Below are positions 1 to 12,220 of a DNA stretch of 12,220 nucleotides, one piece after another. Under the pieces are notes generated by a model. The model did not search any database. It saw only the letters and a program-made list of their open reading frames with translations, and was not told where the DNA came from. Position numbers and translations under genes: made by a program. Each line of letters starts with the position of its first letter. Within the stretch, counting starts at the first letter, position 1. Source of the stretch: a virus. Taxonomy: Duplodnaviria > Heunggongvirae > Uroviricota > Caudoviricetes. The stretch lies in the IMG/VR virus record IMGVR_UViG_2534681937_000031; one strand, given 5' to 3'.

Positions 1-1119
1 TCAAATAACCAACTTAACCCATTCCTGACCTCGAGTATCGTTATAGCGATCGGTGGTTGCCTGGACTTTATGTCCTAGTAATGTTTTTGTATCGATACCC
101 TGTGCACGGTACAGCCGTTCTGATAGAGAGCGTTGTTCATGAAATGTTGGCGGAGTTTTTCCTGCTGGTGGAATTACCCCAGCCAGATCCCGTGCTTTGG
201 CAAAGTAGTCGCTCAGGTTGTCTTTACTCATCGGCTTCGGTTGTTTCTGGTGCCGACTATGGATTAGATATGGACTTAATATTCTGTCTCGGCACCCATC
301 AATAACTTCTTTTAACGTTATCCCAATGGCATCACAGCGTAGTGTAAGCGGTAACGCCAGACGCATTCCGGTTTTTCCCTGGGTGATATGCAAGTGTTCG
401 TTCCACACATCTGAAAAACGCATGTGGCAAATGTCATCACGGCGCTGACCAGTAACAATCGCAAGAAGCATTGCGTTACGGATAAAGTGTTTTTCAGGCG
501 TTGCATTGTAAATTTTTTGCCAGTCTTCCATGGTGAGCCTGGCTCTGGTTACTTTAGGGATCGGTTTACGGGTAGCCTCCGGAGGATTCCATCCAGGAGG
601 AACTTCCCCTGCATGCTGTGCTTCTTTATAAATATCAACCCATAATCCACGATTTACTCTCGCTGTACTGACCATGTCTTTATCCAGCCACTCATCCAGT
701 ATTAATGCAAAGTCTCTTACTTCCAGTTCTTTCAATGGGTGGTTTCCCAGACGGGAAACCAGGTATGCAGCCATTCGAGTTTTTTCTTTGTGAGTTGTAG
801 CTGCAATATCTCCATTTTTCAGTCGCGTGTCCTGTATTTTCAGATATCGATCAACCCATGCCTTTAATCTGATACCCCGACGTTTTGTTGCTGACGGACT
901 TTCATCAATTTTGCGCATGAAATATTCAGCTTCTGCTGCAGCTATTCGCTGATTGGCTGTGGAAGCGATTTTTTCTGCCTTACCTTTGTCTGTTCCGAGT
1001 CCGTGAAATTTTCCAGTCACAGGATTTTTATACTGGTAGTAAACTCTGCCAGTTCTGCGATCAAACTTTTCGTAAAGACCGGCTACGTCAGTGCTGTTTT
1101 TTCGTGGCCTCGGTGACAT
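1..1119 (-). CDS. int: lambda-family tyrosine integrase (site-specific recombinase)
   Basis: 372-aa ORF; colinear similarity to phage lambda Int as recalled, including C-terminal catalytic region (AIVTGQRRDDICHMRFSDV, PPTFHEQRSLSERLY, GHK...DRY). Stop codon TGA is window bases 1-3, so the attachment site lies outside the window. AAGGAG SD about 10 nt upstream of ATG at 1119-1117. Confidence 0.93.
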   Translation of the reverse strand: MSPRPRKNSTDVAGLYEKFDRRTGRVYYQYKNPVTGKFHGLGTDKGKAEKIASTANQRIAAAEAEYFMRKIDESPSATKRRGIRLKAWVDRYLKIQDTRLKNGDIAATTHKEKTRMAAYLVSRLGNHPLKELEVRDFALILDEWLDKDMVSTARVNRGLWVDIYKEAQHAGEVPPGWNPPEATRKPIPKVTRARLTMEDWQKIYNATPEKHFIRNAMLLAIVTGQRRDDICHMRFSDVWNEHLHITQGKTGMRLALPLTLRCDAIGITLKEVIDGCRDRILSPYLIHSRHQKQPKPMSKDNLSDYFAKARDLAGVIPPAGKTPPTFHEQRSLSERLYRAQGIDTKTLLGHKVQATTDRYNDTRGQEWVKLVI

Positions 1120-1357
1120 GAGTTAAAATCTCCTTCAGTGCATCATCATCGCCAGTATGAATTTCCGGCGCAATTCCCGTTTCACCAGGCCCAACAAATA
1201 CTGCTCGGCGATCTATCAGCCAACGCCCACGAATTTTTTGTGGTCTTGGAACGATGTATCCTAGTTTTCCGTATTTCACCAGGGTAGTGTTTGTTATTGG
1301 GAGACTGAACCGTTTTGGTTTCCACTCGTCGAGCGTTATCAGGTACTGTTCGCTCAT
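1088..1357 (-). CDS. xis: excisionase (Xis-like DNA-binding protein)
   Basis: Small ORF immediately upstream of int, overlapping its start by 32 nt (typical xis-int arrangement). N-terminus YLITLDEW...RFSLP...YIVPRP resembles lambda Xis YLTLQEW...RPRSLE...IFPPP. ATG at 1357 has GGAG 8 nt upstream; the track start at 1366 is GTG. Confidence 0.7.
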   Translation of the reverse strand: MSEQYLITLDEWKPKRFSLPITNTTLVKYGKLGYIVPRPQKIRGRWLIDRRAVFVGPGETGIAPEIHTGDDDALKEILTHVTEATKKQH

Positions 1358-1418
1358 GGCTATCACTCCGGAACGCGCCAGTTGCAGAATATCAACGACA
1401 ACTGGCGACGGTTGAACA

Positions 1419-1856
1419 TTAAAAATCAGCCTGACTCGGGATCAGTTTTTGCCAGATAACTGAAACGTATTTTGCCTGGTAACGGGCGTCATCAAGTGCA
1501 TTATGGCGCTCACCTTCGAATGGAATAGCCGTTCTGGCATCGAAGTCTATGGCTTTCCCCAGCTCAACGATTGTGCGTACATCGCGATCGTTGTAGTAAC
1601 GCCACGGGCAGGGGATCCCCTGCCGTTCGTATGAACGGCGCAAAATCGTGTTGTCGAAGTTGGCTCCATTTCCCCAGACCTGAACAAAAAATTCACCGGA
1701 GTTTTCGTCGATAAATTCCCGCAATTGTAACAGTGCATCATCTAACGGGATTTCATCGGTCATAATGGCAGATTGCGCTTCGCGTGATTGCTTAAGCCAC
1801 CATTTAATGGTGTCCCTCGCCGTGTGCTTTCGTGTTGTGTGCCTGCTTTTTACCAC
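1419..1856 (-). CDS. DnaQ-like DEDDh 3'-5' exonuclease domain, apparently 5'-truncated (Exo II and Exo III motifs only)
   Basis: Translation contains Exo II-like WGNGANFDNTIL and Exo III-like HNALDDARYQAKY, but no Exo I (D-x-E) motif in the ORF or in any frame of the 240 bp upstream. Neither candidate start (GTG 1856, ATG 1763) has a convincing SD. Probably a gene remnant. Confidence 0.5.
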   Translation of the reverse strand: MVKSRHTTRKHTARDTIKWWLKQSREAQSAIMTDEIPLDDALLQLREFIDENSGEFFVQVWGNGANFDNTILRRSYERQGIPCPWRYYNDRDVRTIVELGKAIDFDARTAIPFEGERHNALDDARYQAKYVSVIWQKLIPSQADF

Positions 1857-1880
1857 GTCAGGCGAGGTGGTCCCCGTTAT

Positions 1881-1926
1881 TCCCCAACAACAAGGATCTT
1901 GTTAATCTGGATATCCCCAACAACAA
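1881..1926 (+). repeat. two 13-bp direct repeats TCCCCAACAACAA (1881-1893 and 1914-1926), 33 bp apart, in the 5' region of the 1941-2456 gene
   Basis: Exact repeat seen directly in the sequence; lies between the truncated exonuclease ORF and the GTG start at 1941. Confidence 0.6.
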
Positions 1927-1940
1927 TAAGAGTATTGAAT

Positions 1941-2456
1941 GTGATCGCTGAATTAACGGCAGCAATGACGGCTATTCGTGAAACCGCCCAGATTGCAAAA
2001 CTAATGAACGAGGCAAAAACTCAAGCTGAAGTAAATGCGGCTATTGGTGAACTGAACTCAAAGCTTGCATCTATTCAGCGCGAATGCGTGTCTCTCGTTG
2101 AGCTGGTGGGCACTTATCAAGAAATAAATGCTTCTCTCAAAGCTAAAATTGCAGAATTTGAAAACTTTGAGGCTCAGACGGAAGGTTATATCCTTAGCCA
2201 ACTTGAGTCGGGAACTTTTGTGTACTCGAAGGAGGTAACCGTGAACGGCGGCAGCATAATCATGCATCTTTGTCCAAAATGTTTTGGACAAAAGATAGTA
2301 TCGATACTTCAGCCATTCCCGGTTAGAGAATATGAATTTTTTCATAAAAGCAGGTGCCTGTACTGTGAAAATCAGTTTCTTATGAATAAAAATCCGGATT
2401 ACGTATCACCTCCATCTATTGAAGAGTTGGCCAGAAAACTGAACGGCAATCTGTAG
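1941..2456 (+). CDS. hypothetical protein, N-terminal coiled-coil plus C-terminal C4 zinc ribbon (CPKC...x20...CLYC); candidate moron/accessory gene
   Basis: Open frame 1788-2456; the upstream part overlaps the exonuclease ORF, so the likely start is GTG 1941 (AAGAG 10 nt upstream) or ATG 1965. About 171 aa. Visibly AT-rich relative to the replication region. Oriented opposite to the int-xis and early-left genes. No family recognised. Confidence 0.6.
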   Translation: MIAELTAAMTAIRETAQIAKLMNEAKTQAEVNAAIGELNSKLASIQRECVSLVELVGTYQEINASLKAKIAEFENFEAQTEGYILSQLESGTFVYSKEVTVNGGSIIMHLCPKCFGQKIVSILQPFPVREYEFFHKSRCLYCENQFLMNKNPDYVSPPSIEELARKLNGNL

Positions 2457-2495
2457 ATTTTTACTGTTATGGATATCCAGATTGTTAAAGAGCAT

Positions 2496-2519
2496 GCCGG
2501 ATGCTTGCTTGTGTCCGGC
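2496..2519. terminator. possible hairpin between convergent genes (GCCGGA-12 nt-TCCGGC)
   Basis: 6-bp inverted repeat with 12-nt loop in the 114-bp gap between the 3' ends of the 1941-2456 (+) and 2571-2801 (-) genes. No clear U-tract on either strand, so termination function is uncertain. Confidence 0.25.
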
Positions 2520-2570
2520 GCGTGTGCACCACTCTCCCCCCGTGGAGGATTCCTTAATTACCAGATTTCA

Positions 2571-2801
2571 TTAGTCAGAGTTTCTTGCTAACCAGCGACG
2601 CGCGCCAGATTCGGTTTTAAACGTTTTGCTTTTGGTATACGTCATCGCGGTGAACGTGCCGTCCTGGTTGGGAAACACGCCGCACACCAGAGATTCGTTG
2701 TTGCCAAGATCAAGAGTATCCATGCTGACCTCATATCCCCTTAACGCCGGGGTAGCGGAACAAAAACCTGCTGCATAGTTAAAGTTGAACCCTGCCGTCA
2801 T
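2571..2801 (-). CDS. small hypothetical protein, first gene downstream of the leftward early promoter
   Basis: 76-aa ORF with GAGG about 9 nt upstream of ATG at 2801-2799. Positioned like the small early-left genes of Rac-type prophages, but no family confidently recognised. Confidence 0.5.
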   Translation of the reverse strand: MTAGFNFNYAAGFCSATPALRGYEVSMDTLDLGNNESLVCGVFPNQDGTFTAMTYTKSKTFKTESGARRWLARNSD

Positions 2802-2901
2802 GTTCTTACGCCTCGGGCTGGCTACTTAATCCCTGACCACTGCCGGGTAACTCTAGGTATTGCCCTGTATTGTGTGGGACGGGATGGGTTGGTATGGGAA
2901 A

Positions 2902-2967
2902 ACTATAGGAAATGCCTAATTGCTTGTCAATAGGCTACGCCTAATGATTTGGGTGCGACCTAATAGG
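2902..2967 (-). promoter_or_regulatory. leftward early promoter (PL-like) with operator array OL
   Basis: Minus-strand -35 TTGACA (plus 2930-2925), 17-bp spacer, -10 TATAGT (plus 2907-2902). Palindromic operator-like sites TAGGAAATGCCTAA (2906-2919) and TAGGCTACGCCTAA (2931-2944), plus a partial CCTAATAGG (2959-2967), at about 25-bp spacing. Same half-site family as the racR-ydaS intergenic sites. Confidence 0.45.
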
Positions 2968-3038
2968 TGATGGTTTGTGGGAGAGGTAGTAGGAGTTAAC
3001 TAACGGGAACTAGGAATTTCCCGTCGGACCATATAAGT

Positions 3039-3515
3039 TTAAGTTCCTGTCTTGGTGATGTTCTGGCTTTTCCGTTTTGATTCTTGATTTTTCAGATAGT
3101 TAGCTACCTTCATTTCCATTGCGGCAATGTAGGCACGAACGTCATGATCAACCCAACTAGGCTCCGTAGCATTTCCAGATAAGAGGAAAGCCACAATTGC
3201 TCTTTTTTCATCAGAGGCGGCTTGATAAAGGCTGTTTATGTCTAAAAGTTCACTTTTTGTATCTGAAGTGGATGGGGTTGGTATGGGGTATTCGTTAAGC
3301 CCCCAATGCTCTGGACCAACCACATCAGAAAAGAAACGCCATAGTTCTGGAAGTTTGTCTTTACTTATCGAACCTTTCTTAATCCAGTCATGGATTGATG
3401 GTGGTTGGACTTTGAAATGACGTGCGATTTCCGCCTTTGATTTGACGGCTCCTGATGCAATTTTTTTGTTAATGGCCTGCTCTATCGCTCGGCCTAAGTC
3501 TTTACCACTAAGCAT
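3039..3515 (-). CDS. racR: prophage repressor, RacR-like HTH protein
   Basis: 158-aa ORF with N-terminal HTH (AEIARHFKVQPPSIHDWIKKGSIS); divergent from a Cro-like gene across an operator-rich gap; AGGAG 8 nt upstream of ATG at 3515. Length and context match E. coli Rac prophage RacR as recalled. Confidence 0.8.
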   Translation of the reverse strand: MLSGKDLGRAIEQAINKKIASGAVKSKAEIARHFKVQPPSIHDWIKKGSISKDKLPELWRFFSDVVGPEHWGLNEYPIPTPSTSDTKSELLDINSLYQAASDEKRAIVAFLLSGNATEPSWVDHDVRAYIAAMEMKVANYLKNQESKRKSQNITKTGT

Positions 3516-3543
3516 TGCTTAATAGTCTCCTATGCGCATCGCA

Positions 3544-3612
3544 TTAGGCAATGCCTACTCTCGAAGCGTTAGGCATAGCCTATTGACAATTGCATTAGGC
3601 TAAGCCTAATAT
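3544..3612 (+). promoter_or_regulatory. rightward early promoter (PR-like) with three operators (OR)
   Basis: Three palindromes at about 26-bp centre spacing: TTAGGCAATGCCTA (3544-3557), TAGGCATAGCCTA (3570-3582), TTAGGCTAAGCCTAA (3595-3609). -35 TTGACA 3583-3588, 18-bp spacer, -10 TAATAT 3607-3612. The third operator overlaps the -10. Confidence 0.55.
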
Positions 3613-3639
3613 TATTGTGTGTTTTTTGGAGTTCATTCG

Positions 3640-3963
3640 ATGAAAAAAGATAACTATTCATTCAAACGAGCTTGTGCTGTTGTCGGTGGGCAATCAGCAA
3701 TGGCTAGGCTTTTAGGTGTATCTCCTCCAAGCGTAAATCAATGGATCAAAGGTGTACGTCAGTTGCCTGCTGAGAGATGTCCTGCGATTGAACGAGCAAC
3801 AAAAGGTGGTGTCCTGTGTGAAGAACTTCGTCCTGATGTTGATTGGACATACTTACGACGCTCGTCATGTTATTCGCAGAATATGTCGATGAAGCAACCA
3901 AATGACGAAAACGATCATACCCGAAGCATCAAGAGGCAAATGATTCATGAAAATCAAACATGA
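3640..3963 (+). CDS. ydaS: Cro-like HTH regulator, YdaS-like
   Basis: ATG 3640 with GGAG 8 nt upstream. The ORF-track start at 3619 (GTG) lies at the predicted transcription start and is rejected. HTH motif QSAMARLLGVSPPSVNQWIKG. Sits immediately rightward of the repressor, as in the Rac racR-ydaS-ydaT arrangement. Confidence 0.75.
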   Translation: MKKDNYSFKRACAVVGGQSAMARLLGVSPPSVNQWIKGVRQLPAERCPAIERATKGGVLCEELRPDVDWTYLRRSSCYSQNMSMKQPNDENDHTRSIKRQMIHENQT

Positions 3964-4372
3964 GCACATCCGCATGGCGATGAATGCCTGGGCATATCCT
4001 GATGGTGAGAAAGTTCCTGCAGCTGAAATAGCCCGGACTTATTTCGAACTGGGGATGACGTTCCCGGAACTGTACGACGACAGCCATCCGGAAGCCCTGG
4101 CTCGTAATACCCAGAAAATTTTCCGTTGGCTGGATAAAGACACCCCTGATGCTGTTGAAAAAATGCAGGCTCTGTTACCGGCGATCGAAAAGGCAATGCC
4201 GCCTCTGCTGGTGGCCCGTATGCGCAGTCACAGCTCTGAATATTACCGTGAGATCGTCGAACGGAGGGATCGGCTGGTGAAAGATGTGGATGATTTTGTC
4301 GCAGCGGCGATCGCCTGGGGCACCCTGACTAACAGTGGGGGTCAGCCTGGTAATGCTGTTGTCGTGCATTGA
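3947..4372 (+). CDS. ydaT: YdaT-like protein (partner of YdaS in Rac-type immunity regions)
   Basis: 141-aa ORF overlapping the ydaS 3' end by 17 nt; AAGAGG 10 nt upstream of ATG 3947. Length and position match Rac YdaT (140 aa) as recalled. Confidence 0.75.
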   Translation: MKIKHEHIRMAMNAWAYPDGEKVPAAEIARTYFELGMTFPELYDDSHPEALARNTQKIFRWLDKDTPDAVEKMQALLPAIEKAMPPLLVARMRSHSSEYYREIVERRDRLVKDVDDFVAAAIAWGTLTNSGGQPGNAVVVH

Positions 4373-4440
4373 CCAACAATATTCATGCCGGATTTCTTCC
4401 GGATGTTCGAGGGTAAAGTTCGGTATCAGATGAGGTGAGT

Positions 4441-5478
4441 ATGGCTAATGCCTGGCTCAGATTGTGGCATGACATGCCAAATGATCCCAAATGGCGAACC
4501 ATTGCCAGGGTCTCAGGACAGCCAATCGCAACAGTGATGGCGGTGTATATCCACCTTCTGGTGAGTGCGTCACGAAATGTCACGAAATGTCACGGCGAGT
4601 CACTACGTGGTCACATTGATGTCACGACGGAAGATTTAGCAAGTGCGCTTGATGTGACGGAAGACGTGATTGATTCAATTTTGCATGCAATGCAGGGGCG
4701 AGTTCTGGATGGCGATCTTATTTCCGGATGGGAAAAACGCCAGGTGATGAAGGAGGATAACGGTAATGTTTCGCAAACCGCAAAATCCCCGGCAGAGCGC
4801 AAGAGAGCGCAGCGGGAGCGGGAAAGACTGCGGGAGCAGAACACTGATTGTCACGATGAGTCACGACGCGTCACGCATATGTCACGACAAGTCACGACAG
4901 ATACAGATACAGATAAAGAATTAAACCCCACACATAACGCGCGCATGCGCGAGAGTGCTCCAGCCAGTGAGTCGAATGGCGCGCCGTTGCAGACAGCAGA
5001 ACCTGAATACCCGGATGGCCTGAGCGAACCGATCGGGAAATTTCCGATGACTGGTGTCTGGCGGCCGTCGCTGGATTTTCGACAGCGGGCTGCATTGTGG
5101 GGTATGGCTCTGCCTGAGCCTGAGTTTACACCTGCTGAGCTTGCCGCATTCCGGGATTACTGGATGGCGGAGGGGAAGGTTTTCACGCAGGTTCAGTGGG
5201 AGCAGAAATTTGCCCGTCACGTGCAGCACGTCAGGGCACAGGTAAAACCAGTCAGCAAGGGGGTAAGCCATGCAGCACCAGGTGGCACCGCATCACGGGC
5301 AGTTCAGGAAATTCGGGCAGCACGTGAACAGTGGGAACGTGAAAACGGATTTATCAGCAACGGAAACGGCCTGGAAGCTGTGGGAACTTATGGGGGAGGT
5401 GTATTCGAACCGCTGGACCCAGAAGAACGGGGCTGCGCCGTCGAAGCTCTGGATTGCTCAGATTGGCGCGATGACTGA
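4441..5478 (+). CDS. replication initiator, O-like/YdaU-type, with DnaT-like C-terminal region; contains the iteron-type origin
   Basis: GAGG upstream of ATG 4441. Two clusters of GTCACG iterons lie inside the coding sequence, as ori-lambda lies inside O. The 3' 209 nt overlap the next gene out of frame. Confidence 0.65.
   Translation: MANAWLRLWHDMPNDPKWRTIARVSGQPIATVMAVYIHLLVSASRNVTKCHGESLRGHIDVTTEDLASALDVTEDVIDSILHAMQGRVLDGDLISGWEKRQVMKEDNGNVSQTAKSPAERKRAQRERERLREQNTDCHDESRRVTHMSRQVTTDTDTDKELNPTHNARMRESAPASESNGAPLQTAEPEYPDGLSEPIGKFPMTGVWRPSLDFRQRAALWGMALPEPEFTPAELAAFRDYWMAEGKVFTQVQWEQKFARHVQHVRAQVKPVSKGVSHAAPGGTASRAVQEIRAAREQWERENGFISNGNGLEAVGTYGGGVFEPLDPEERGCAVEALDCSDWRDD
4569..4626 (+). 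repeat. iteron cluster 1: six GTCAC(G/T/A) repeats at 10-11 bp periodicity
   Basis: Direct reading: GTCACGAAAT GTCACGAAAT GTCACGGCGA GTCACTACGTG GTCACATTGAT GTCACG. Confidence 0.75.
4850..4918 (+). repeat. iteron cluster 2: five GTCACG repeats at 10-11 bp periodicity, followed by ATACAG x3
   Basis: Direct reading: GTCACGATGA GTCACGACGC GTCACGCATAT GTCACGACAA GTCACGACAG ATACAG ATACAG ATAAAG. Lies about 224 bp downstream of cluster 1. Confidence 0.75.
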
Positions 5479-5932
5479 ACAGCAAATCCGGCAGGTCTGC
5501 CGTCAGTGCATGGACCGCTGCCGGGCGGGTGAAACGTGGCCTCCGGACCTGGCTGAGTTTGTGGCGTTGATTTCGGAGAGCGGGGCAAATCCATTTGGCC
5601 TGACGGTGGATGCCGTGATGGAGGAGTACCGTCGCTGGAGGAATGAATCCTGGCGGTACGACGGGAGTGATAAATACCCGTGGCCACAGCCGGTGCTGTA
5701 CCACATTTGCCTCGAGATGCGTGACAGAGGGATTGAGCGGCAGATGACGGAAGGTGAGTTAAAACGACTTGCAGAACGGCAACTGACGAAATGGGCAAAG
5801 CAAGTTGGTAACGGGATGAGTATTCCCCCGATCCGGAGACAACTCGCATCGCCGAAGTGCCCGCAAGGGCCAACGCCAATTGAATTACTGAAACAGGAAT
5901 ACGAGCGCCGGAAGGCGGCTGGTTTTGTTTGA
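5270..5932 (+). CDS. replication protein P-like (putative DnaB helicase loader)
   Basis: C-terminal half resembles lambda P as recalled (KYPWPQP...LYHI, MTEGELKRLAERQL, GMSIPPIRRQL versus lambda SYPWKSN...HYWL, LTDAELRRKAADEL, GEAIPEPVKQL). Start uncertain: ATG 5270 has AAGGGGG SD; alternatives are ATG 5390 and ATG 5471 (ATGA overlap with the upstream stop). Confidence 0.6.
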   Translation: MQHQVAPHHGQFRKFGQHVNSGNVKTDLSATETAWKLWELMGEVYSNRWTQKNGAAPSKLWIAQIGAMTEQQIRQVCRQCMDRCRAGETWPPDLAEFVALISESGANPFGLTVDAVMEEYRRWRNESWRYDGSDKYPWPQPVLYHICLEMRDRGIERQMTEGELKRLAERQLTKWAKQVGNGMSIPPIRRQLASPKCPQGPTPIELLKQEYERRKAAGFV

Positions 5933-5965
5933 ATCTGAGAAACGATTTTGTCGGAGGAAATTTTA

Positions 5966-6682
5966 ATGGAAACCGTATCTGACGCACTGAAAGCACTGAA
6001 AAGAGCCTCTTCACATGTGGTGGCAGCTCGCCTTGGAATTAGTCGTGAAGAGGCTGTCAACGAACTGTGGAAACTGAAACGCCGTGGAGAAGCGGATAAC
6101 AAGGGGGCGATATGGTGGCTGACTCAGGCTGGTGAAAGTGAACCGGTGTCACCGGTACCGAAAGTGACGGCGCAAATGCTGACAGAGGCGATTGAACAAC
6201 ATGGCCCACAAACGGCGGATGAACTGGCATTGATGTTCGGAATTACCTCCCGCCGGGCGAATTCATCGCTGGCAATGGCAATCAGCAAAGGGTGTCTGAT
6301 TCGCGTGAATCAGGATGGTAAATTTCGTTACTGCATACCGGGCGTTGATTTACCGGCAGAGCCGAAAGCAGCATCCGTAGCTGAAACGGAGGGTAAAGCC
6401 CTTCCTCAGCCAGCTGGTGTTGCGTTACCAGTCCAGGAAACGGCTGCACAGGAAGAAATTAAAACAGAAGCGGTGGAGGACATTGTGAAGTTGCAGCAAT
6501 CGTTCACTGAAGCGAAAGCAGATGACCTGATTCTACCATCGCTGCATGTGGCTAACCGCGAGCTGCGCCGGGCGAAAAGTAATGTTCAGAAGTGGGAGCG
6601 AGTCTGTGCTGCGCTACGGGAACTGAACAAACACAGGGATATTCTCCGGGATATTACCGCCACCAGAGAGCAGCAGCGGTGA
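5966..6682 (+). CDS. hypothetical protein with two winged-helix-like segments and a C-terminal coiled coil
   Basis: GGAGG 9 nt upstream of ATG 5966. First gene of a translationally coupled block. Confidence 0.55.
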
Positions 6683-6996
6683 GTGGCTGGAAGAAGTGGC
6701 GCTGGGCTGAAATCCTGATACTCCGGCAGTGTGCGGGAACGATGAGAGTCGAAAGCATCGGTTATCTGATTGGCCGTAGTGAGTCAGCCGTCAGGACGAA
6801 AGCGCGGGAACTGGGTATCAGCATGATGTTACGGGGTGATTATCACCAGTCAGCCAAATGTTCACAGCGTGATATTGAGCTGGCGTGGCAACTGCATCAG
6901 CGTGGTGTACCCCGACGGGAAATTGCCGAAAAGTTTGGGATGAAGTTGGGCGCAGTGAATAACTACGTTTATTTCGACAGGAGGGTTCAGGAGTGA
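6679..6996 (+). CDS. hypothetical small DNA-binding-like protein (two HTH-like repeats)
   Basis: GTG 6679 overlaps the upstream stop (GTGA); alternative ATG 6742. Repeats [16 protein letters not shown] and [15 protein letters not shown]. Confidence 0.45.
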
Positions 6997-7295
6997 GGGT
7001 GAGGGTTTATATCGCCGGTCCGATGACGGGATATGAAAATTTTAACCGCGAGGCATTTCACAAAACGGAAGAGGTGCTGAAACGGGAAGGGCATACCGTT
7101 TTAAACCCGGCAGTACTTCCGGACGGGCTGACTCAGCCACACTACATGGATATTTGCATGGCAATGCTCCGTTGCGTGGATGCGGTTTACATGCTGAAAG
7201 GCTGGCAGCAGTCGGCAGGTGCAGGGGCTGAGCTGGCACTGGAGGAGAAACCGGGCCATGCGGTGATTTTTCAGGAGGTGGGCAGTGAATATTGA
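6993..7295 (+). CDS. DUF4406-like protein (nucleoside 2-deoxyribosyltransferase-like fold)
   Basis: YIAGPMTG...NFN...VLNPA...GWQQSAGA motif pattern typical of the phage DUF4406 family as recalled; GTG start overlapping the upstream stop; GGAGG 8 nt upstream. Confidence 0.6.
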   Translation: MRVRVYIAGPMTGYENFNREAFHKTEEVLKREGHTVLNPAVLPDGLTQPHYMDICMAMLRCVDAVYMLKGWQQSAGAGAELALEEKPGHAVIFQEVGSEY

Positions 7296-7602
7296 CCCGG
7301 CGATAACGATTGATATGGCCCTGAACGCCGGCCTGGCACTTCTTGGTTATTTCTACATTATGTTCTGCAGCGGACGATGGCTGTCACTGTTGTTCATGAA
7401 AAAATGGAATAAACGCCGTAAGCAGGAGCAACGCCAGAAGGCAATGGATGCATTTTTCGAAGCCTTCGGAATTGACGGCATGGAACCAGGGGATCCAGCT
7501 CGCGCAATCAGCAGAGGGGGTGTAGTAATCCTTGTATATCGGAGTGAAGAGAAAAATGACGATCACAAAACAACGTGTAGAAGAAATCATATCCCGCATT
7601 GA
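7285..7602 (+). CDS. small membrane protein (one N-terminal TM helix, basic C-terminal tail)
   Basis: GTG 7285 with AGGAGG 6 nt upstream; hydrophobic segment ALNAGLALLGYFYIMFCSGRWLSLLF; 3' end overlaps the next gene by 47 nt. Confidence 0.45.
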   Translation: MNIDPAITIDMALNAGLALLGYFYIMFCSGRWLSLLFMKKWNKRRKQEQRQKAMDAFFEAFGIDGMEPGDPARAISRGGVVILVYRSEEKNDDHKTTCRRNHIPH

Positions 7603-7873
7603 AATGTATGGACATGGTGCAGGGTATATCGCAGACGAGGTTAATGATCTGGCTATACTGGCGCTGAATTTATCAAATATCGCGAACCTGAAGCGATACG
7701 AGCTTGATATGGGAGGTTGCGACTCGTGCGGTCAGGATTGTGGCGCTGATATGACTGAAGATCCTGATGGTGATTATGTCCTGTTTGATGACGTGGTTAA
7801 GTTGTTTGAATTTGATACAACCACTCAAAAGTTAGAAATCCCGGCAAAGGAGGCAGCCAGTGGGCAAGATTGA
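7556..7873 (+). CDS. hypothetical acidic protein with a Cys cluster (CDSCGQDCG)
   Basis: ATG 7556 with GGAG about 11 nt upstream; the track start at 7532 has no SD. Confidence 0.5.
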   Translation: MTITKQRVEEIISRIEMYGHGAGYIADEVNDLAILALNLSNIANLKRYELDMGGCDSCGQDCGADMTEDPDGDYVLFDDVVKLFEFDTTTQKLEIPAKEAASGQD

Positions 7874-8297
7874 CTATCAGGCACTGCGTGAGGCAGCACA
7901 AAACTATCAATCGACGCTGGCGTGGTATCAGGCTACCCCGGACAGCCCAAATGCTGAACGGGATTGTGATGCGGCTCTTGCTGCGTTTAAGCGTCACATC
8001 CGTCATCGGGAAGCGGATATTATCGCTGATTTGCTGGATGGACTGGAAGAAGCAAAATCACAACTCAACGAGCAGCGTGAGTATTACGAAGGCGTTATCT
8101 CTGATGGGAGCAAGCGTATTGCTGAACTGGAAGCGCGGGAAGTTCAATTACCGACTCGCTACGACCTTCGATATGGACACCCGATAAATGCAGATGAGCG
8201 ACATGTCATGATACCTAAAGAAAATGGCAGTTGGCTTTACCTGATTGACCTAGAACACGCATTACGCGTCGCTGGCATTCGCATCAAAGGAGAGTGA
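7860..8297 (+). CDS. hypothetical coiled-coil protein (weak Ead/Ea22-like N-terminal resemblance)
   Basis: GTG 7860 with AAGGAGG 6 nt upstream; overlaps the upstream stop. The N-terminal DYQALREAAQ resemblance is tentative. Confidence 0.5.
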   Translation: MGKIDYQALREAAQNYQSTLAWYQATPDSPNAERDCDAALAAFKRHIRHREADIIADLLDGLEEAKSQLNEQREYYEGVISDGSKRIAELEAREVQLPTRYDLRYGHPINADERHVMIPKENGSWLYLIDLEHALRVAGIRIKGE

Positions 8298-8298
8298 G

Positions 8299-8490
8299 AT
8301 GAACGGACAAATATCAATTGTTCGACCAGGAGCATGTGACGATCGCGAAATACGAATGATTATTCGTCTGGCGATGGGGAAAACAATAACTGCTCTCATT
8401 ACTCCAGAAAATCTCGCATTAGCATTAACAGGAAAGTCAGACATGCCAGTAGAGCTAAAGCTGCGAAATGTTGAGATTAAGGTGAAATAG
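8299..8490 (+). CDS. small hypothetical protein
   Basis: ATG 8299 one nt after the upstream stop; AGGAG upstream. Confidence 0.45.
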   Translation: MNGQISIVRPGACDDREIRMIIRLAMGKTITALITPENLALALTGKSDMPVELKLRNVEIKVK

Positions 8491-8492
8491 CT

Positions 8493-9050
8493 ATGACCAC
8501 TATTACCAAAGATCGACTGCTGACAATCCAGCATTGGCGCGAAACATACGGACCGGGTAGCAACGTTGTGCTTCCAGCAGAAGAAGCGGAAGAGCTGGCA
8601 CGGATTGCGCTGGCATCACTGGCAGCAGTATCGGATGAACGAGCAGCCTATGAATTATTTATGGAGAAGCGTTTCGGGGAATCTGTAGATCGCCGCAGAG
8701 CAAAAAATGGCGATAGAGAATACATGGCATGGGATATGGCGCTTGGCTGGATTATCTGGTGTCACCGCGCCGCCATGCTTCAGGCTGGAAACTTTCGGGA
8801 AAATAAGGGTTCGTCAACCAATAATTTTCGGATAATCTCGGAAACGTCAACCAACTCTCCGGCAATCCCTGATGAGGTGTTGTCCGCAATCCTGAAGGTC
8901 GCCAGGCTTCGTGCAGATTTCGATGCTTCTGAAGTGGACAGGCGAGGTATCGGTAGTTGTCTGGATGAGGCCGAGCAAGAACTTATCGTTACCATTAACG
9001 AATACGCCAGTCAGATCGCAGTAGAAGCGACACAGGGGGAGAACCAATGA
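8493..9050 (+). CDS. hypothetical protein
   Basis: 185-aa ORF, ATG 8493 two nt after the upstream stop; its stop overlaps the start of a 25-codon ORF (ATGA). Confidence 0.55.
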   Translation: MTTITKDRLLTIQHWRETYGPGSNVVLPAEEAEELARIALASLAAVSDERAAYELFMEKRFGESVDRRRAKNGDREYMAWDMALGWIIWCHRAAMLQAGNFRENKGSSTNNFRIISETSTNSPAIPDEVLSAILKVARLRADFDASEVDRRGIGSCLDEAEQELIVTINEYASQIAVEATQGENQ

Positions 9051-9124
9051 GCCGGCCAGATGCATTTGCAGGCGTTGCTATAGCTATTGCTTTTCTAGTA
9101 TATGTTATTTGTCGGTGGGGGTAA
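9047..9124 (+). CDS. candidate small hydrophobic peptide (25 aa, MSRPDAFAGVAIAIAFLVYVICRWG)
   Basis: Not in the ORF track (under 60 aa). ATG overlaps the stop of the 8493-9050 gene; single predicted TM helix. Confidence 0.3.
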   Translation: MSRPDAFAGVAIAIAFLVYVICRWG

Positions 9125-9159
9125 AAACGTTCGCCGGGATTCACACCAAGGGAGGGAAT

Positions 9160-9264
9160 ATGTCGGATGATATTTCACTGGTAATGGAAGGCGCTCTGGC
9201 TGTTATTGCTGTTGTGGGTGTTTACTGCCTGGTTGTGTTTTTGATGGAGCGCCTGGGGAACTGA
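9160..9264 (+). CDS. candidate small hydrophobic peptide (34 aa, MSDDISLVMEGALAVIAVVGVYCLVVFLMERLGN)
   Basis: Not in the ORF track. Strong SD AAGGGAGGG just upstream of ATG 9160; single predicted TM helix; followed by a palindrome. Confidence 0.4.
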   Translation: MSDDISLVMEGALAVIAVVGVYCLVVFLMERLGN

Positions 9265-9507
9265 ATTCATTCCGTATGGGAATTCCCATATCGGGCAAAA
9301 CGGTTTGCTGTAAAGCGAGAGTTAAGTAGAATTGCTGCGGGTGCTTGAGGCTGTCTGCCTCGGGCATGCCACCGTAAGGCAGACAGAGAAAAGCCCCAGT
9401 TAACATTACGCGTCCTGCAAGACGCTTAACATTAATCTGAGGCCCAATCTATGCTTCACAAACGTAGGTTAGCCTCTTACGCGCCGAAAGGCAAGGAGAA
9501 GCAGGTT
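9265..9507. other. hok leader/regulatory region (expected site of mRNA fold-back elements and any Sok-like antisense RNA)
   Basis: Contains a 22-bp near-palindrome CCGTATGGGAATTCCCATATCGG (9272-9294) and the hairpin CTGTCTGCC-N18-GGCAGACAG (9351-9386). An in-frame upstream ATG at 9451 with GAGG SD precedes hok. Antisense RNA not located. Confidence 0.35.
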
Positions 9508-9663
9508 ATGAAGCAGCAAAAGGCGATGTTAATCGCCCTGATCGTCATCTGTTTAACCGTCATAGTGACGGCACTGGTAACGAGGAAAGACCTCTGCGAG
9601 GTACGAATCCGAACCGGCCAGACGGAGGTCGCTGTCTTCACAGCTTACGAACCTGAGGAGTAA
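9508..9663 (+). CDS. hokD: Hok/Gef-family type I toxin (HokD/RelF-like, 51 aa)
   Basis: Translation MKQQKAMLIALIVICLTVIVTALVTRKDLCEVRIRTGQTEVAVFTAYEPEE matches the Hok family and, as recalled, E. coli HokD. AAGGAG 9 nt upstream of ATG. Confidence 0.9.
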   Translation: MKQQKAMLIALIVICLTVIVTALVTRKDLCEVRIRTGQTEVAVFTAYEPEE

Positions 9664-9731
9664 GAGACCAGGCGGGGGAGAAATCCCTCGCCACCGCTGA
9701 TGTGTCAGGCATCCTCAACGCACCCGCACTT

Positions 9732-9759
9732 AACCCGCTTCGGCGGGTTTTGTTTTTTC
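9732..9759 (+). terminator. rho-independent terminator (AACCCGC-TTCG-GCGGGTT followed by TTTGTTTTTTCT)
   Basis: 7-bp GC-rich stem, tetraloop and U-rich tract about 70 nt after the hok stop. Confidence 0.75.
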
Positions 9760-9779
9760 TGGTCGTTCTGGTTTACAAT
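9750..9779 (+). promoter_or_regulatory. possible promoter restarting rightward transcription (-35 TTGTTT, -10 TACAAT)
   Basis: TACAAT at 9774-9779 with TTGTTT 18 bp upstream; overlaps the terminator U-tract. Confidence 0.3.
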
Positions 9780-9830
9780 CCATCCGTCAGCCTGAACAAC
9801 TGGCACCTGCTGCGCCAGCAGAGAAAACAG

Positions 9831-10109
9831 ATGGCGCACGATACCAAATTTTACAATTCGGATAACTCTGCCGCCCCTGCCAGCAGGCACGGGCGGCGTT
9901 CTCATGCATTCAAATCTGACTGGTATCAGCACGACCCCTGCACCGAAGAACAGGCTGAATGGCTGATTCAGTGTTACCGCAGGCGCGGATACGAGGTTAA
10001 GAAAGCCCTCAGTCTCGATTATCGTCACTGGATAATCTCCGTCAGGCTTCCTTACTCCGAACGCCCACCGCGTCCGTCCCGCACATTCCAGCAACGCATC
10101 TGGAGGTAA
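9831..10109 (+). CDS. hypothetical protein, possibly Rem-like (Qin prophage context)
   Basis: The track ORF 9702-10109 spans the terminator, so the start is moved to ATG 9831 (92 aa). Position between hok and a DUF968 gene mirrors the Qin hokD-rem-ydfU order as recalled. Confidence 0.45.
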   Translation: MAHDTKFYNSDNSAAPASRHGRRSHAFKSDWYQHDPCTEEQAEWLIQCYRRRGYEVKKALSLDYRHWIISVRLPYSERPPRPSRTFQQRIWR

Positions 10110-10110
10110 C

Positions 10111-11115
10111 GTGCGGGTATTACTTCGACCTGTTCTGGTACCGGAACTCGGGCTGGTGATCGTTAAGCCGGGCCGTGAATCCATGCCGGTATTCCACAAT
10201 ACCCGGGTACTGGTGGAGCCGGAACCGAAAAGCATGCGTAATCTGCCGTCCGGGGTCGTTCCTGCCGTTCGCCAGCCGCTGGCGGAGGATAAATCATTAC
10301 TGCCATTTTTCAGCGACGAACGAGTGATTCGTGCTGCTGGTGGCGCTGGCGCACTGTCTGACTGGTTACTGCGCCATGTTAAATCCTGCCAGTGGCCACA
10401 CGGCGATTATCACCACAGTGAAACCGTCATTCACCGTTATGGTACCGGCGCAATGGTGTTGTGCTGGCACTGCGACAACCAGTTGCGTGACCAGACCTCC
10501 GAATCACTTGAGCAACTTGCTCACCAAAACCTGTCAGCATGGATGATTGACGTCATTCGTCACGCAATGAATGGCACACAGGAGCGTGAATTATCGCTGG
10601 CTGAATTATCCTGGTGGGCGGCCTGCAATCAGGTGGTGGATGCACTACCTGAGGCAGTAGCGCGTCGTTCGCTGGGATTACCAGCGGAAAAAATCCGCTC
10701 CGTATACCGTGAGAGTGACATCGTACCGGGAGAACAGACAGCCATCAGCATACTGAAGCAGCGCACAAAAAATATTGCGCTGCCACTTCACGTCCACCAG
10801 CAACAAAATCCACCACAGAAAAAAACGGTTGTCAGTATCGCCGTTGATCCGGAGTCTCCTGAATCGTTCATGAGGCGGCCTAAACGTTGCCGCTGGGTTA
10901 ATGAGAAATACACGCGCTGGGTAAAGACACAGCCGTGTGCGTGTTGTGGTAAGCCTGCTGACGATCCGCATCACCTGATTGGTCATGGTCAGGGGGGAAT
11001 GGGGACAAAGGCCCACGATATTTTCACGCTACCGTTGTGCCGGGTAGCACCACAACGAACTTCATGCAGACCCGACTGGAGTTTGAGAAAAAGTACGGCT
11101 CTCAGATTGAGTTAA
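10111..11115 (+). CDS. DUF968/YdfU-like protein with HNH-like Cys/His motifs; 3' end appears frameshifted
   Basis: GTG 10111 overlapping the upstream stop. C-terminal motifs CACCGKPADDPHHLIGHGQGG...LPLCR, with HHNELHADP then EFEKKYGSQIELIF... continuing in the two other frames up to TAA 11160-11162, just before the rusA RBS. Confidence 0.65.
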   Translation: MRVLLRPVLVPELGLVIVKPGRESMPVFHNTRVLVEPEPKSMRNLPSGVVPAVRQPLAEDKSLLPFFSDERVIRAAGGAGALSDWLLRHVKSCQWPHGDYHHSETVIHRYGTGAMVLCWHCDNQLRDQTSESLEQLAHQNLSAWMIDVIRHAMNGTQERELSLAELSWWAACNQVVDALPEAVARRSLGLPAEKIRSVYRESDIVPGEQTAISILKQRTKNIALPLHVHQQQNPPQKKTVVSIAVDPESPESFMRRPKRCRWVNEKYTRWVKTQPCACCGKPADDPHHLIGHGQGGMGTKAHDIFTLPLCRVAPQRTSCRPDWSLRKSTALRLS

Positions 11116-11174
11116 TTTTTCGTTTTCTTGATCACGCCTTTGCGACTGGCGTGCTCGGGTAAAAGAGGTGACTG

Positions 11175-11534
11175 ATGCTCATAGATTTGGTTTTACCTTA
11201 CCCGCCGACGGTGAACACCTACTGGCGACGTCGTGGCAGCACATATTTTGTATCAAAAGCCGGTGAGCGTTATCGCCGGGCTGTGGCGCTTATTGTTCGC
11301 CAGCAGCGGCTGAAATTAAGCCTGTCCGGAAGGCTGGCGATAAAGATTATTGCCGAGCCACCGGATAAGCGCCGCCGTGACCTGGACAATATTCTGAAAG
11401 CGCCGCTGGATGCGCTGACGCATGCGGGGTTGCTAATGGACGATGAGCAGTTTGATGAAATCAATATTGTGCGCGGTCAGCTCGTTCCTGGTGAGCGGCT
11501 GGGGATAAAAATCACAGAACTGGAGTGCGCATGA
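11175..11534 (+). CDS. rusA: crossover junction endodeoxyribonuclease RusA (Holliday junction resolvase)
   Basis: 119-aa ORF with the RusA-family pattern (YPPTVNTYWRRRG...PDKRRRDLDNILKAPLDALT...LMDDEQ); GAGG 7 nt upstream of ATG. Confidence 0.88.
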   Translation: MLIDLVLPYPPTVNTYWRRRGSTYFVSKAGERYRRAVALIVRQQRLKLSLSGRLAIKIIAEPPDKRRRDLDNILKAPLDALTHAGLLMDDEQFDEINIVRGQLVPGERLGIKITELECA

Positions 11535-12220
11535 ATAACCACTATTTACAGTTTGTGCGTGAGCTGCTCATTATCGCTACCGCCGATTTGAGTGGGGCAA
11601 CAAAAGGTCAGCTTGAAGCCTGGCAGGAGAATGCCATGTTCGATACAGGGCGTTACAGGCGAAAAAAAATCCGGTACCGCGATGAAGTGACTGGAAAAAT
11701 GATAACGCGGGATAATCCACCAATCCCGGGAAAGCAATCGCTGGCGAAGGTGACGTCAATTCCTCTGGTCAGTCCGGTTGAGTTTTCGACATCATCGTGG
11801 CGGCGGGCTGTTCTGTCTCTTGAAGAACATCATAAAGCCTGGTTGTTGTGGTGTTACAGCGGGAGTATTTGTTGGGAATATCAGATCGCGATAACACAGT
11901 GGGCGTGGAATGAATTTAATACTCAATCCGGTACCAGAAAAATTGCAGGGAAAACGCAGGAACGCCTGAAAAAATTAATCTGGCTGGCGGCGCAGGCAGT
12001 AAAAGCAGAACTTTTTGGTGGGGAAGGTTATGAATACAAGGAGCTGGCATTACTGGTGGGAGTGACAACTAAAAACTGGTCCAAAACATTTACTCGTCAC
12101 TGGGTTGCAATGAAACACATTTTTCACCGACTGGATAGTGAGGCTTTATTGTTTGTAATGAGAACGCGTTCAAAACAAAAGGCGGCATTTTCAAAGCAAA
12201 GTGTTGCAAAAGTAGATTGA
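11531..12220 (+). CDS. putative late-gene antiterminator (Q-like, QuuQ/YdfT-type)
   Basis: ATG 11531 overlaps the rusA stop (ATGA). Position immediately after rusA at the right end of the early region is the canonical Q location; family assigned by context only. Stop is the last three bases of the window. Confidence 0.5.
   Translation: MNNHYLQFVRELLIIATADLSGATKGQLEAWQENAMFDTGRYRRKKIRYRDEVTGKMITRDNPPIPGKQSLAKVTSIPLVSPVEFSTSSWRRAVLSLEEHHKAWLLWCYSGSICWEYQIAITQWAWNEFNTQSGTRKIAGKTQERLKKLIWLAAQAVKAELFGGEGYEYKELALLVGVTTKNWSKTFTRHWVAMKHIFHRLDSEALLFVMRTRSKQKAAFSKQSVAKVD

Follow-up and report, generated by a model that had tools for sequence, protein, structure and literature searches.

The lambda nin region (ren and ninB–ninI), a dispensable accessory stretch of the rightward early (PR) operon that separates P from Q, and the exo-xis or 'ea' region of lambda, P22 and Shiga toxin (Stx) phages are the closest described counterparts of the locus considered here; published work covers the exo-xis region and the mosaic variants of Ea22, among them those with C-terminal domains of the DUF551 type (DUF, domain of unknown function) (PMC10834534), and the genes of this region are normally carried in the leftward early (PL) operon, between exo and xis. 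A further counterpart is the early-right operon of the K-12 Rac prophage, with a racR, YdaS_toxin and YdaT_toxin trio (repressor, cro and cII-like), where YdaW directly follows the replication genes and everything downstream of ydaW is deleted. The window analysed here, 12,220 nt from IMG/VR record IMGVR_UViG_2534681937_000031 (Caudoviricetes), is a lambdoid prophage early region of the Rac/YdaS-YdaT type carrying the same trio, and its stretch 5966–9124 holds nine consecutive plus-strand genes, here g1 to g9. With good confidence, these are read as a mosaic of independently reshuffling accessory genes occupying a nin-equivalent stretch of the PR operon, and not as one system; on sequence comparison, the block resolves into two evolutionary parts, a persistent g1–g2–g3 trio (YdaW, a helix-turn-helix (HTH) protein and DUF4406) and a loosely linked exo-xis/ea-type cassette, g4–g8 with g9.

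As in lambda, the block forms an accessory, dispensable stretch and lies between P (5471–5932, plus strand; Pfam Phage_lambda_P, E 6.8e-16, with the same name from the Prokaryotic Genome Annotation Pipeline, PGAP) and Q (from 11525) in the PR operon; with P upstream and hok/sok downstream, its location agrees with that given in an earlier sequence-only reading, which had placed it between the replication module and hok. The place of lambda ren is taken by g1, with a winged-helix-type segment in both Ren and g1, and g1 directly follows the replication genes as YdaW does in Rac, although these are a DnaT-like O and a lambda-P-like gene here and YdaU/YdaV in Rac.

The mosaic reading draws on reassortment among related loci. 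Searches of IMG/VR seeded with g1, g3, g4, g5, g7 and g8 returned 399 loci, dereplicated to 282, onto which all window proteins were mapped by tblastn. Within these 282 loci the trio was closely linked, with conditional frequencies of 0.67–0.97 overall (P(g2|g1) 0.74, P(g3|g1) 0.69, P(g1|g2) 0.97 and P(g1|g3) 0.81) and of 0.81–0.88 with ydaT, whereas g4–g8 reached only 0.08–0.59 among themselves and g4, g5, g7 and g8 only 0.05–0.24 with g1–g3, the mosaic Ea22-like g6 being exceptional at 0.40–0.56. The full g1–g9 order was confined to one dereplicated IMG/VR representative; alternative orders included 'P g1 g8 g9 p34 hok' (p34 being the gene of a 34-aa peptide downstream of the block), 'g1 g2 g3 g6 hok', 'P g5', 'g7 exo', 'g8 int' and 'exo g5 g4 int'. 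A megablast survey of 5,426 complete E. coli genomes located a copy of the block, 99.6% identical, in the potC-adjacent prophage of O157:H7 strains; the whole block was covered to at least 80% in 287 of these genomes and some part of it matched in 3,207, with g1–g3 intact in 509, g4–g7 in 287 and the 3′ part of g8 through p34 in 344. Eight of the nine proteins fall in established phage or DUF families (the 25-aa g9 being the exception) and the genes occur largely independently of one another, though none is of a Nin family; the single functional module suggested earlier is not upheld.

The relatives of the second part point to its origin. Phage PhiR49_2 carries a g4–g5–Ea22–g7 cassette, its 47- and 14-nt overlaps unchanged, between cI and xis/int in the leftward (PL) operon, and genomes of Stx1a phages have the g4–g5–g6–g7 order, with identical overlaps, close to their left end. 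In the window, g6 is a bona fide Ead/Ea22 member and g8 belongs to the modular DUF551/Ea22-type proteins, mosaic in the sense of PMC10834534, while the lambda exo-xis genes orf60a/61/63/73 were not seen. In contrast to the usual arrangement, the cassette follows the replication genes in the PR operon, and because the xis-exo interval here is almost empty (~50 bp), it would have been recombined into this operon from a PL position next to xis/int. By analogy with published exo-xis/Ea22 work, a role in lysis–lysogeny or host physiology may be envisaged, and the phenotypes published for Stx phages may extend to cassettes located after replication genes.

Translational coupling throughout the block had been proposed from its stop/start overlaps. 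All nine open reading frames (ORFs) are present on the plus strand with no gap above 2 nt, and the eight internal junctions all fall within −47 to +2 nt: −4 at g1/g2 (6679, GTGA) and g2/g3 (6993, GTGA), −11 at g3/g4 (7285, where a GTGA string is present but the g3 stop lies at 7293–7295), −47 at g4/g5 (7556), −14 at g5/g6 (7860, GTGG rather than GTGA), +1 at g6/g7 (8299), +2 at g7/g8 (8493) and −4 at g8/g9 (9047, ATGA). The GTGA/ATGA overlaps described at 6679, 6993 and 9047 and the 1- and 2-nt gaps at 8299 and 8493 were thus correctly placed, those described at 7285 and 7860 are longer overlaps of 11 and 14 nt, and the 47-nt overlap at 7556 had been missed. Equally tight packing is seen elsewhere in the window (−17 at cro/ydaT, −8 at O/P, +1 at orf/DUF968, −10 at rusA/Q), and the lambda nin junctions (−4, −4, −34, −4, −11, −4, −23, −4) are of the same style. 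Junction geometry is constant per gene pair within the E. coli set, novel pairings still overlap (g3 to g6 by 4 or 14 nt, g1 to g6 by 14 nt), and DUF4406 genes in distant genomes show −4 junctions whatever the neighbour (30/73 upstream, 21/68 downstream). With lambda nin, the DUF4406 neighbours and the new pairings all alike, tight packing is a general style of such operons and therefore no sign of a module, and stop/start overlaps in lambdoid early operons should not be taken to indicate one. The 47-nt g4/g5 overlap was considered as a by-product of a recombination joint, an explanation ruled out because 29 of 31 loci, and PhiR49_2 as well, retain the same overlap.

Shine–Dalgarno (SD) sequences were called by eye in the 20 nt upstream of each start, and seven of the nine starts carry a clear one of their own 4–8 nt upstream: GGAGG for g1 (8 nt before the ATG), AGGAGG for g3, AGGAGGTG for g4, AAGGAGG for g6, AAGGAG for g7, AAGGTGA for g8 and GGGGGAG for g9. 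A weak, distant GGAG precedes g5, and g2 has no recognisable SD. Coupling would therefore be needed by g2 only, and weakly by g5; the junction geometry is compatible with the coupling proposed, but most downstream genes possess their own SD. The single real candidate for termination-reinitiation coupling is probably g2, whose GTG start overlaps the g1 stop. Following derepression, one long PR transcript would cover the block genes; translation would start at the gene's own ribosome-binding site in most cases and, in g2, by termination-reinitiation. The likely source of this transcript is a predicted PR-like sigma-70 promoter at 3583–3612 (plus strand; TTGACA-18-TAATAT, 10/12), the best consensus match in 3500–12220, which sits between the racR-like repressor and the YdaS_toxin/P22_Cro-like gene; the first convincing intrinsic terminator after PR is predicted at 9732–9749 (plus strand; a T-run preceded by a 7-bp stem in which 5 pairs are GC), 3′ of hok. 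A consensus scan of 5966–9124 for intrinsic sites gave no convincing terminator and no standout internal promoter; weak terminator candidates only were found, at 5907–5923 and 7367–7384, in a total not above that of shuffled sequences.

The first gene of the trio, g1 (5966–6682, 238 aa), is a YdaW/DUF1627 protein (Pfam DUF1627 E 2.3e-81, 271.5 bits against a cutoff of 28.1; phrog_630 E 1e-114) with 57% identity to K-12 Rac YdaW over aa 1–139 (BLASTP, E 4e-53); the K-12 gene (5753–6313 of the Rac locus, L409) is its truncated counterpart, without the C-terminal helix that full-length g1 has. In the AlphaFold (AF2) model of g1, only a winged helix at aa 66–125 is predicted with confidence (predicted local distance difference test, pLDDT, 82–87 across aa 70–120), the remainder comprising an N-terminal HTH-like three-helix unit, a disordered acidic/Pro-rich linker (129–183) and a C-terminal helix of ~70 residues (168–237); Foldseek matches were to ScpB-like tandem winged helices and to winged helices of the MarR/ArsR type. 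YdaW has been listed as a predicted MarR-type regulator (PMC9308461), and ydaW was identified as a multicopy blocker of the retron-Sen2 toxin RcaT in a TIC/TAC screen (bioRxiv 10.1101/2020.06.22.160242). A weak match to phrog_142 (E 1.4e-4) raised homology to Ren, which was rejected as unproven, with an hhalign probability against lambda Ren of 0.5%; the only paper to mention DUF1627 within a genomic-context analysis, on the Pas small RNAs (sRNAs), was set aside as irrelevant, its sRNAs lying near lysis genes outside the window.

The product of g2 (6679–6996) is a basic HTH protein (105 aa, isoelectric point (pI) 10) matching phrog_323, 'transcriptional regulator' (E 1.8e-24), with sub-threshold Pfam matches to Sigma70_r4_2, HTH_23 and HTH_7. 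That of g3 (6993–7295, 100 aa) is the DUF4406 protein already recognised in the sequence-only reading, above the Pfam threshold at 115.1 bits (cutoff 22) and matching phrog_355, 'nucleoside 2-deoxyribosyltransferase'. The AF2 model of g3 (pLDDT 88) has the flavodoxin-like fold of the nucleoside 2-deoxyribosyltransferases (NDTs) and of human DNPH1 (Rcl): the top 25 Foldseek PDB matches are all NDT, DNPH1 or MilB, with probability 1.0 and TMq 0.67–0.76 to NDTs and DNPH1. At 100 aa it is shorter than the solved enzymes (130–160 aa), without their extra helical elements and loops, and has no sequence-level match to any PDB entry; PDB sequence searches with g1, g3 and a g3 profile gave nothing meaningful. 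Tyr6, Asp53, Ser74 and Glu80 are invariant in 34 homologues, the Tyr of strand 1, the Asp of helix 3 and the Glu that follows strand 4 appearing in DNPH1 order, and in DNPH1 a Y24/D80/E104 triad acts with a covalent Glu-sugar intermediate (PMC10603095). On the strength of the model, g3 is a minimal NDT/DNPH1-fold protein and a putative enzyme, which would probably cleave or transfer the N-glycosidic bond of a (deoxy)nucleoside or nucleotide through Tyr6, Asp53 and Glu80. DUF4406, described as a minimal DNPH1/NDT-fold protein with conserved Tyr/Asp/Glu, offers a concrete assay for a widespread phage DUF. A 169-aa cluster in the g3 homologue list (P0008) combines DUF4406 and DUF4752, an apparent g3–g4 fusion across the 11-nt overlap that may be a frameshift or sequencing artefact.

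Several points weigh against reading the block as a mosaic of this kind. The co-occurrence sample favours close relatives, since it comprises the 80 best matches to each seed gene, dereplication was by k-mer sharing only and the counts ignore phylogeny; persistence of the trio without the window's O/P homologues, and beside the different replication genes of K-12 Rac, may reflect a functional link of that part; the putative equivalence of g3 Y6/D53/E80 to the DNPH1 triad draws on residue order and secondary-structure position; and the prophage type of O157:H7 strain SS52, to which most of the window belongs, is defective, such that the block genes may not all be expressed.

The alternative that survives best proposes g1–g2, with or without g3, as a functional unit, a coupled DNA-binding pair of fixed stoichiometry serving the replication-to-late transition or anti-defence, with g3 as a nucleotide-processing partner; this is considered possible but doubtful. 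The only plausible sub-module is g1–g2, given near-obligate co-occurrence, a retained GTGA and the missing SD of g2, with g3 a looser third member: the −4 junction is kept at g1/g2 in 56 of 57 loci and at g2/g3 in 49 of 49, the trio follows ydaT in most loci even where the O/P homologues of the window are missing, and YdaW is retained directly after the different replication genes of Rac. The linked cases are, on the other side, all close relatives (g1 identity at least 80%) and may reflect plain inheritance, and g1 is found without g2 or g3, as in 'P g1 g8 g9 ... hok' and 'ydaT O g1 hok'. The block of RcaT by multicopy ydaW lends the unit some support, but was obtained with a truncated homologue of 57% identity in an overexpression screen; that g1–g2(–g3) counteracts host defence, for which this is the hint, or manipulates the nucleotide pool early in lytic growth, is improbable.

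At greater distance, DUF4406 is met in other company. In the surroundings of 80 DUF4406 loci from species-representative genomes, spanning Enterobacterales to Burkholderiales, Planctomycetota and Chloroflexota, g1 was nearby in none, g2 in one and g4 in three, so that g3 stands without g1/g2 in 79 of 80 other species, and immediate neighbours in distant loci are heterogeneous (RusA, C5 and Dam methylases, DnaB, exonucleases and metallophosphatases). In Enterobacter prophages DUF4406 comes after lambda O/P or DnaB and is succeeded by Ead/Ea22 or DUF551 genes, beyond which lies NinB-NinE-NinG-Q; the Edwardsiella gene belongs to a leftward operon with RdgC, Ead, Eai, exonuclease and DUF4752, and the Vibrio gene adjoins the integrase; DUF1627 was not found beside DUF4406 in the Enterobacter, Edwardsiella or Vibrio loci. 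Three Enterobacter prophages (L405–L407, ~4400–5300) carry a winged-helix ORF (99–114 aa), sometimes with an 82-aa HTH ORF, always directly 5′ of DUF4406, after the replication genes and with 4-nt overlaps, a layout mirroring g1–g2–g3 that would favour the unit; as g1/g2 homologues, which would back a conserved pair, these ORFs were rejected, showing no significant similarity to either protein.

Inert remnants of a decaying cryptic prophage are an unlikely account of the nine genes: the exonuclease, RusA and DUF6645 genes are pseudogenes in the reference O157:H7 prophage of SS52 and K-12 YdaW is a truncated g1, but all nine ORFs are intact here, their families are abundant and conserved in many prophages and active phages, and even the 25-aa g9 is kept intact through in-frame indels. 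Less probable still is a single nine-gene system, whether a defence/anti-defence island or a lysogeny-control module co-expressed through coupling. Contiguity on one strand with gaps of at most 2 nt, the full order in 287 complete genomes and the lack of a predicted internal terminator speak for it, but all 20 of the 20 best full-order matches listed are ~99.6% identical, those named being O157:H7; the full order has its one dereplicated IMG/VR representative, and the low linkage between the halves largely refutes the proposal. Other phages moreover carry the g4–g7 cassette in a different operon, NCBIfam and PADLOC scans of ten small proteins returned zero matches, most genes have their own SD, and lambda nin is packed identically. 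Least credible is a classical nin region of NinB–NinI homologues, in spite of the shared P–Q position and junction style and the Enterobacter DUF4406 and Ead/DUF551 genes directly 5′ of NinB-NinE-NinG-Q, since none of the nine proteins matches NinB/D/E/F/G/H/I in Pfam (nor are NinB/C/D/E/F/G/H/I homologues among their Pfam matches at E <= 0.1), so that the hidden Markov model results argue against homology and bear out the earlier view that these are not classical nin genes; no convincing equivalents of the intrinsic terminators tR2–tR4, through which late expression in lambda depends on N, are predicted, and RusA/DUF968 replace NinG and other nin genes further downstream.

Within the reshuffling cassette, as in the trio, the ORFs are real genes and not chance frames, because eight of the nine match PHROG families (E 1e-34 to 1e-115). 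The basic 105-aa product of g4 (7285–7602) is a DUF4752 protein (Pfam E 7.5e-39, 132.1 bits against a cutoff of 27; phrog_667); its earlier description as a membrane protein derives from one moderately hydrophobic N-terminal segment, with a Kyte–Doolittle 19-aa maximum of 1.54 at aa 11. That of g5 (7556–7873, 105 aa; phrog_3126 E 2.5e-66), described as Cys-rich and acidic, is indeed acidic (pI 4.1) but has just 3 Cys. The g6 protein (7860–8297, 145 aa) is Ead/Ea22-like (Pfam Ead_Ea22, PF13935, 51.4 bits against a cutoff of 27; phrog_250 E 2.5e-44; 'ead/Ea22-like family protein' in PGAP), and the 63-aa g7 protein (8299–8490), of unknown function, matches phrog_1222 (E 1e-40) and no Pfam family; its position is that of Eai in an Edwardsiella prophage, where Ead_Ea22 is followed by Phage_P22_Eai (62 aa). 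The earlier statement that no member is assignable was too strong, given the Ead/Ea22 membership of g6, the NDT/DNPH1 fold of g3 and the homology of g1 to YdaW, though it stands in that none of the nine has an experimentally defined function.

The acidic 185-aa product of g8 (8493–9050) falls in a modular DUF551/Ea22-type group (phrog_14306, phrog_660, phrog_60 and phrog_3323). The N-terminal ~80 aa of g5 and g8 are paralogous (BLASTP, 31% identity over 81 aa, E 2e-5; TITK...LA.IAL..L), and a similar N-terminus is found in Edwardsiella and Enterobacter DUF4406 neighbours; this module may serve as a recombination point for swapping C-terminal domains. The last gene, g9 (9047–9124), encodes a hydrophobic 25-aa ORF with its own SD and no family match. 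In 28 non-redundant loci it occurs as eight protein variants, all intact at 25–27 aa, whose indels keep the frame and whose ...ICRWG end does not vary; judging from this pattern of conservation, it is probably a genuine small membrane protein gene, although unannotated by PGAP in relatives.

The window is itself a hybrid with its joint inside g8. Positions 1–8875 are 99.9% identical to the potC prophage of O157:H7 SS52 (L001) and 8604–11503 are 99.1% identical to a second prophage type (L329), the right-hand segment being present also in the second prophage of O157:H7 TR01, and the crossover interval of ~270 bp (8604–8875) is common to both parental types. No complete E. coli genome among the 5,426 carries the exact hybrid, which is present in a single short contig of IMG/VR (4.8 kb; L008); genuine recombination between prophages could account for it, as could chimeric assembly over the ~270-bp repeat. 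Pfam did not find the DUF551 domain (PF04448) in g8, whose SS52 homologue is annotated DUF551, because the 3′ part of g8 comes from the second prophage type. The genes themselves are known, being annotated at 99–100% identity in hundreds of O157:H7 genomes, with the larger ones all in catalogued families, and in the SS52 prophage (locus coordinate = window + 535) PGAP annotates genes 1–8 with the same starts as here; as discovery, an ordinary accessory region of already annotated genes carries little weight.

To the left of the block, the window carries the integrase (1–1119, minus strand), followed by an excisionase, a 3′-5′ exonuclease and the racR-type repressor (3039–3515, minus strand); rightward of the repressor lie YdaS/Cro-like, YdaT-like, DnaT-domain O-like and lambda-P-like genes. 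Downstream, a 34-aa transmembrane peptide gene (9160–9264, plus strand; Kyte–Doolittle maximum 2.72; hypothetical WP_001278450.1 in SS52) separates g9 from a hok/sok type I toxin–antitoxin (9339–9663, plus strand), comprising sok (Rfam RF01794, 9339–9513, 114.9 bits), the sole Rfam match in the whole window and outside the block, and a hokD-like ORF (9508–9663; hokD in PGAP); beyond it follow the DUF968 gene, RusA and the start of Q. This single-transmembrane peptide is conserved in six protein variants, one of which (2 of 27 loci) is interrupted by an in-frame stop.

The exonuclease (1419–1856, minus strand) corresponds to an N-terminally truncated pseudogene in the SS52 annotation. By comparison, rusA (11175–11534, plus strand) is an intact 119-aa ORF here and a pseudogene in SS52, a difference explained by the origin of the window's right-hand part in the other prophage type. 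A lone opposite-strand gene for a 171-aa protein (1941–2456, plus strand) occupies the part of the window with the lowest GC content (0.41), at the place that sieB takes in K-12 Rac, with the kil/exo side on one flank and the DUF1391 gene on the other. Its product matches phrog_1244 (unknown function) and no Pfam or PADLOC entry, and with a C-terminal CPKC...CLYC motif, a possible zinc ribbon, the gene is a candidate moron or exclusion gene.

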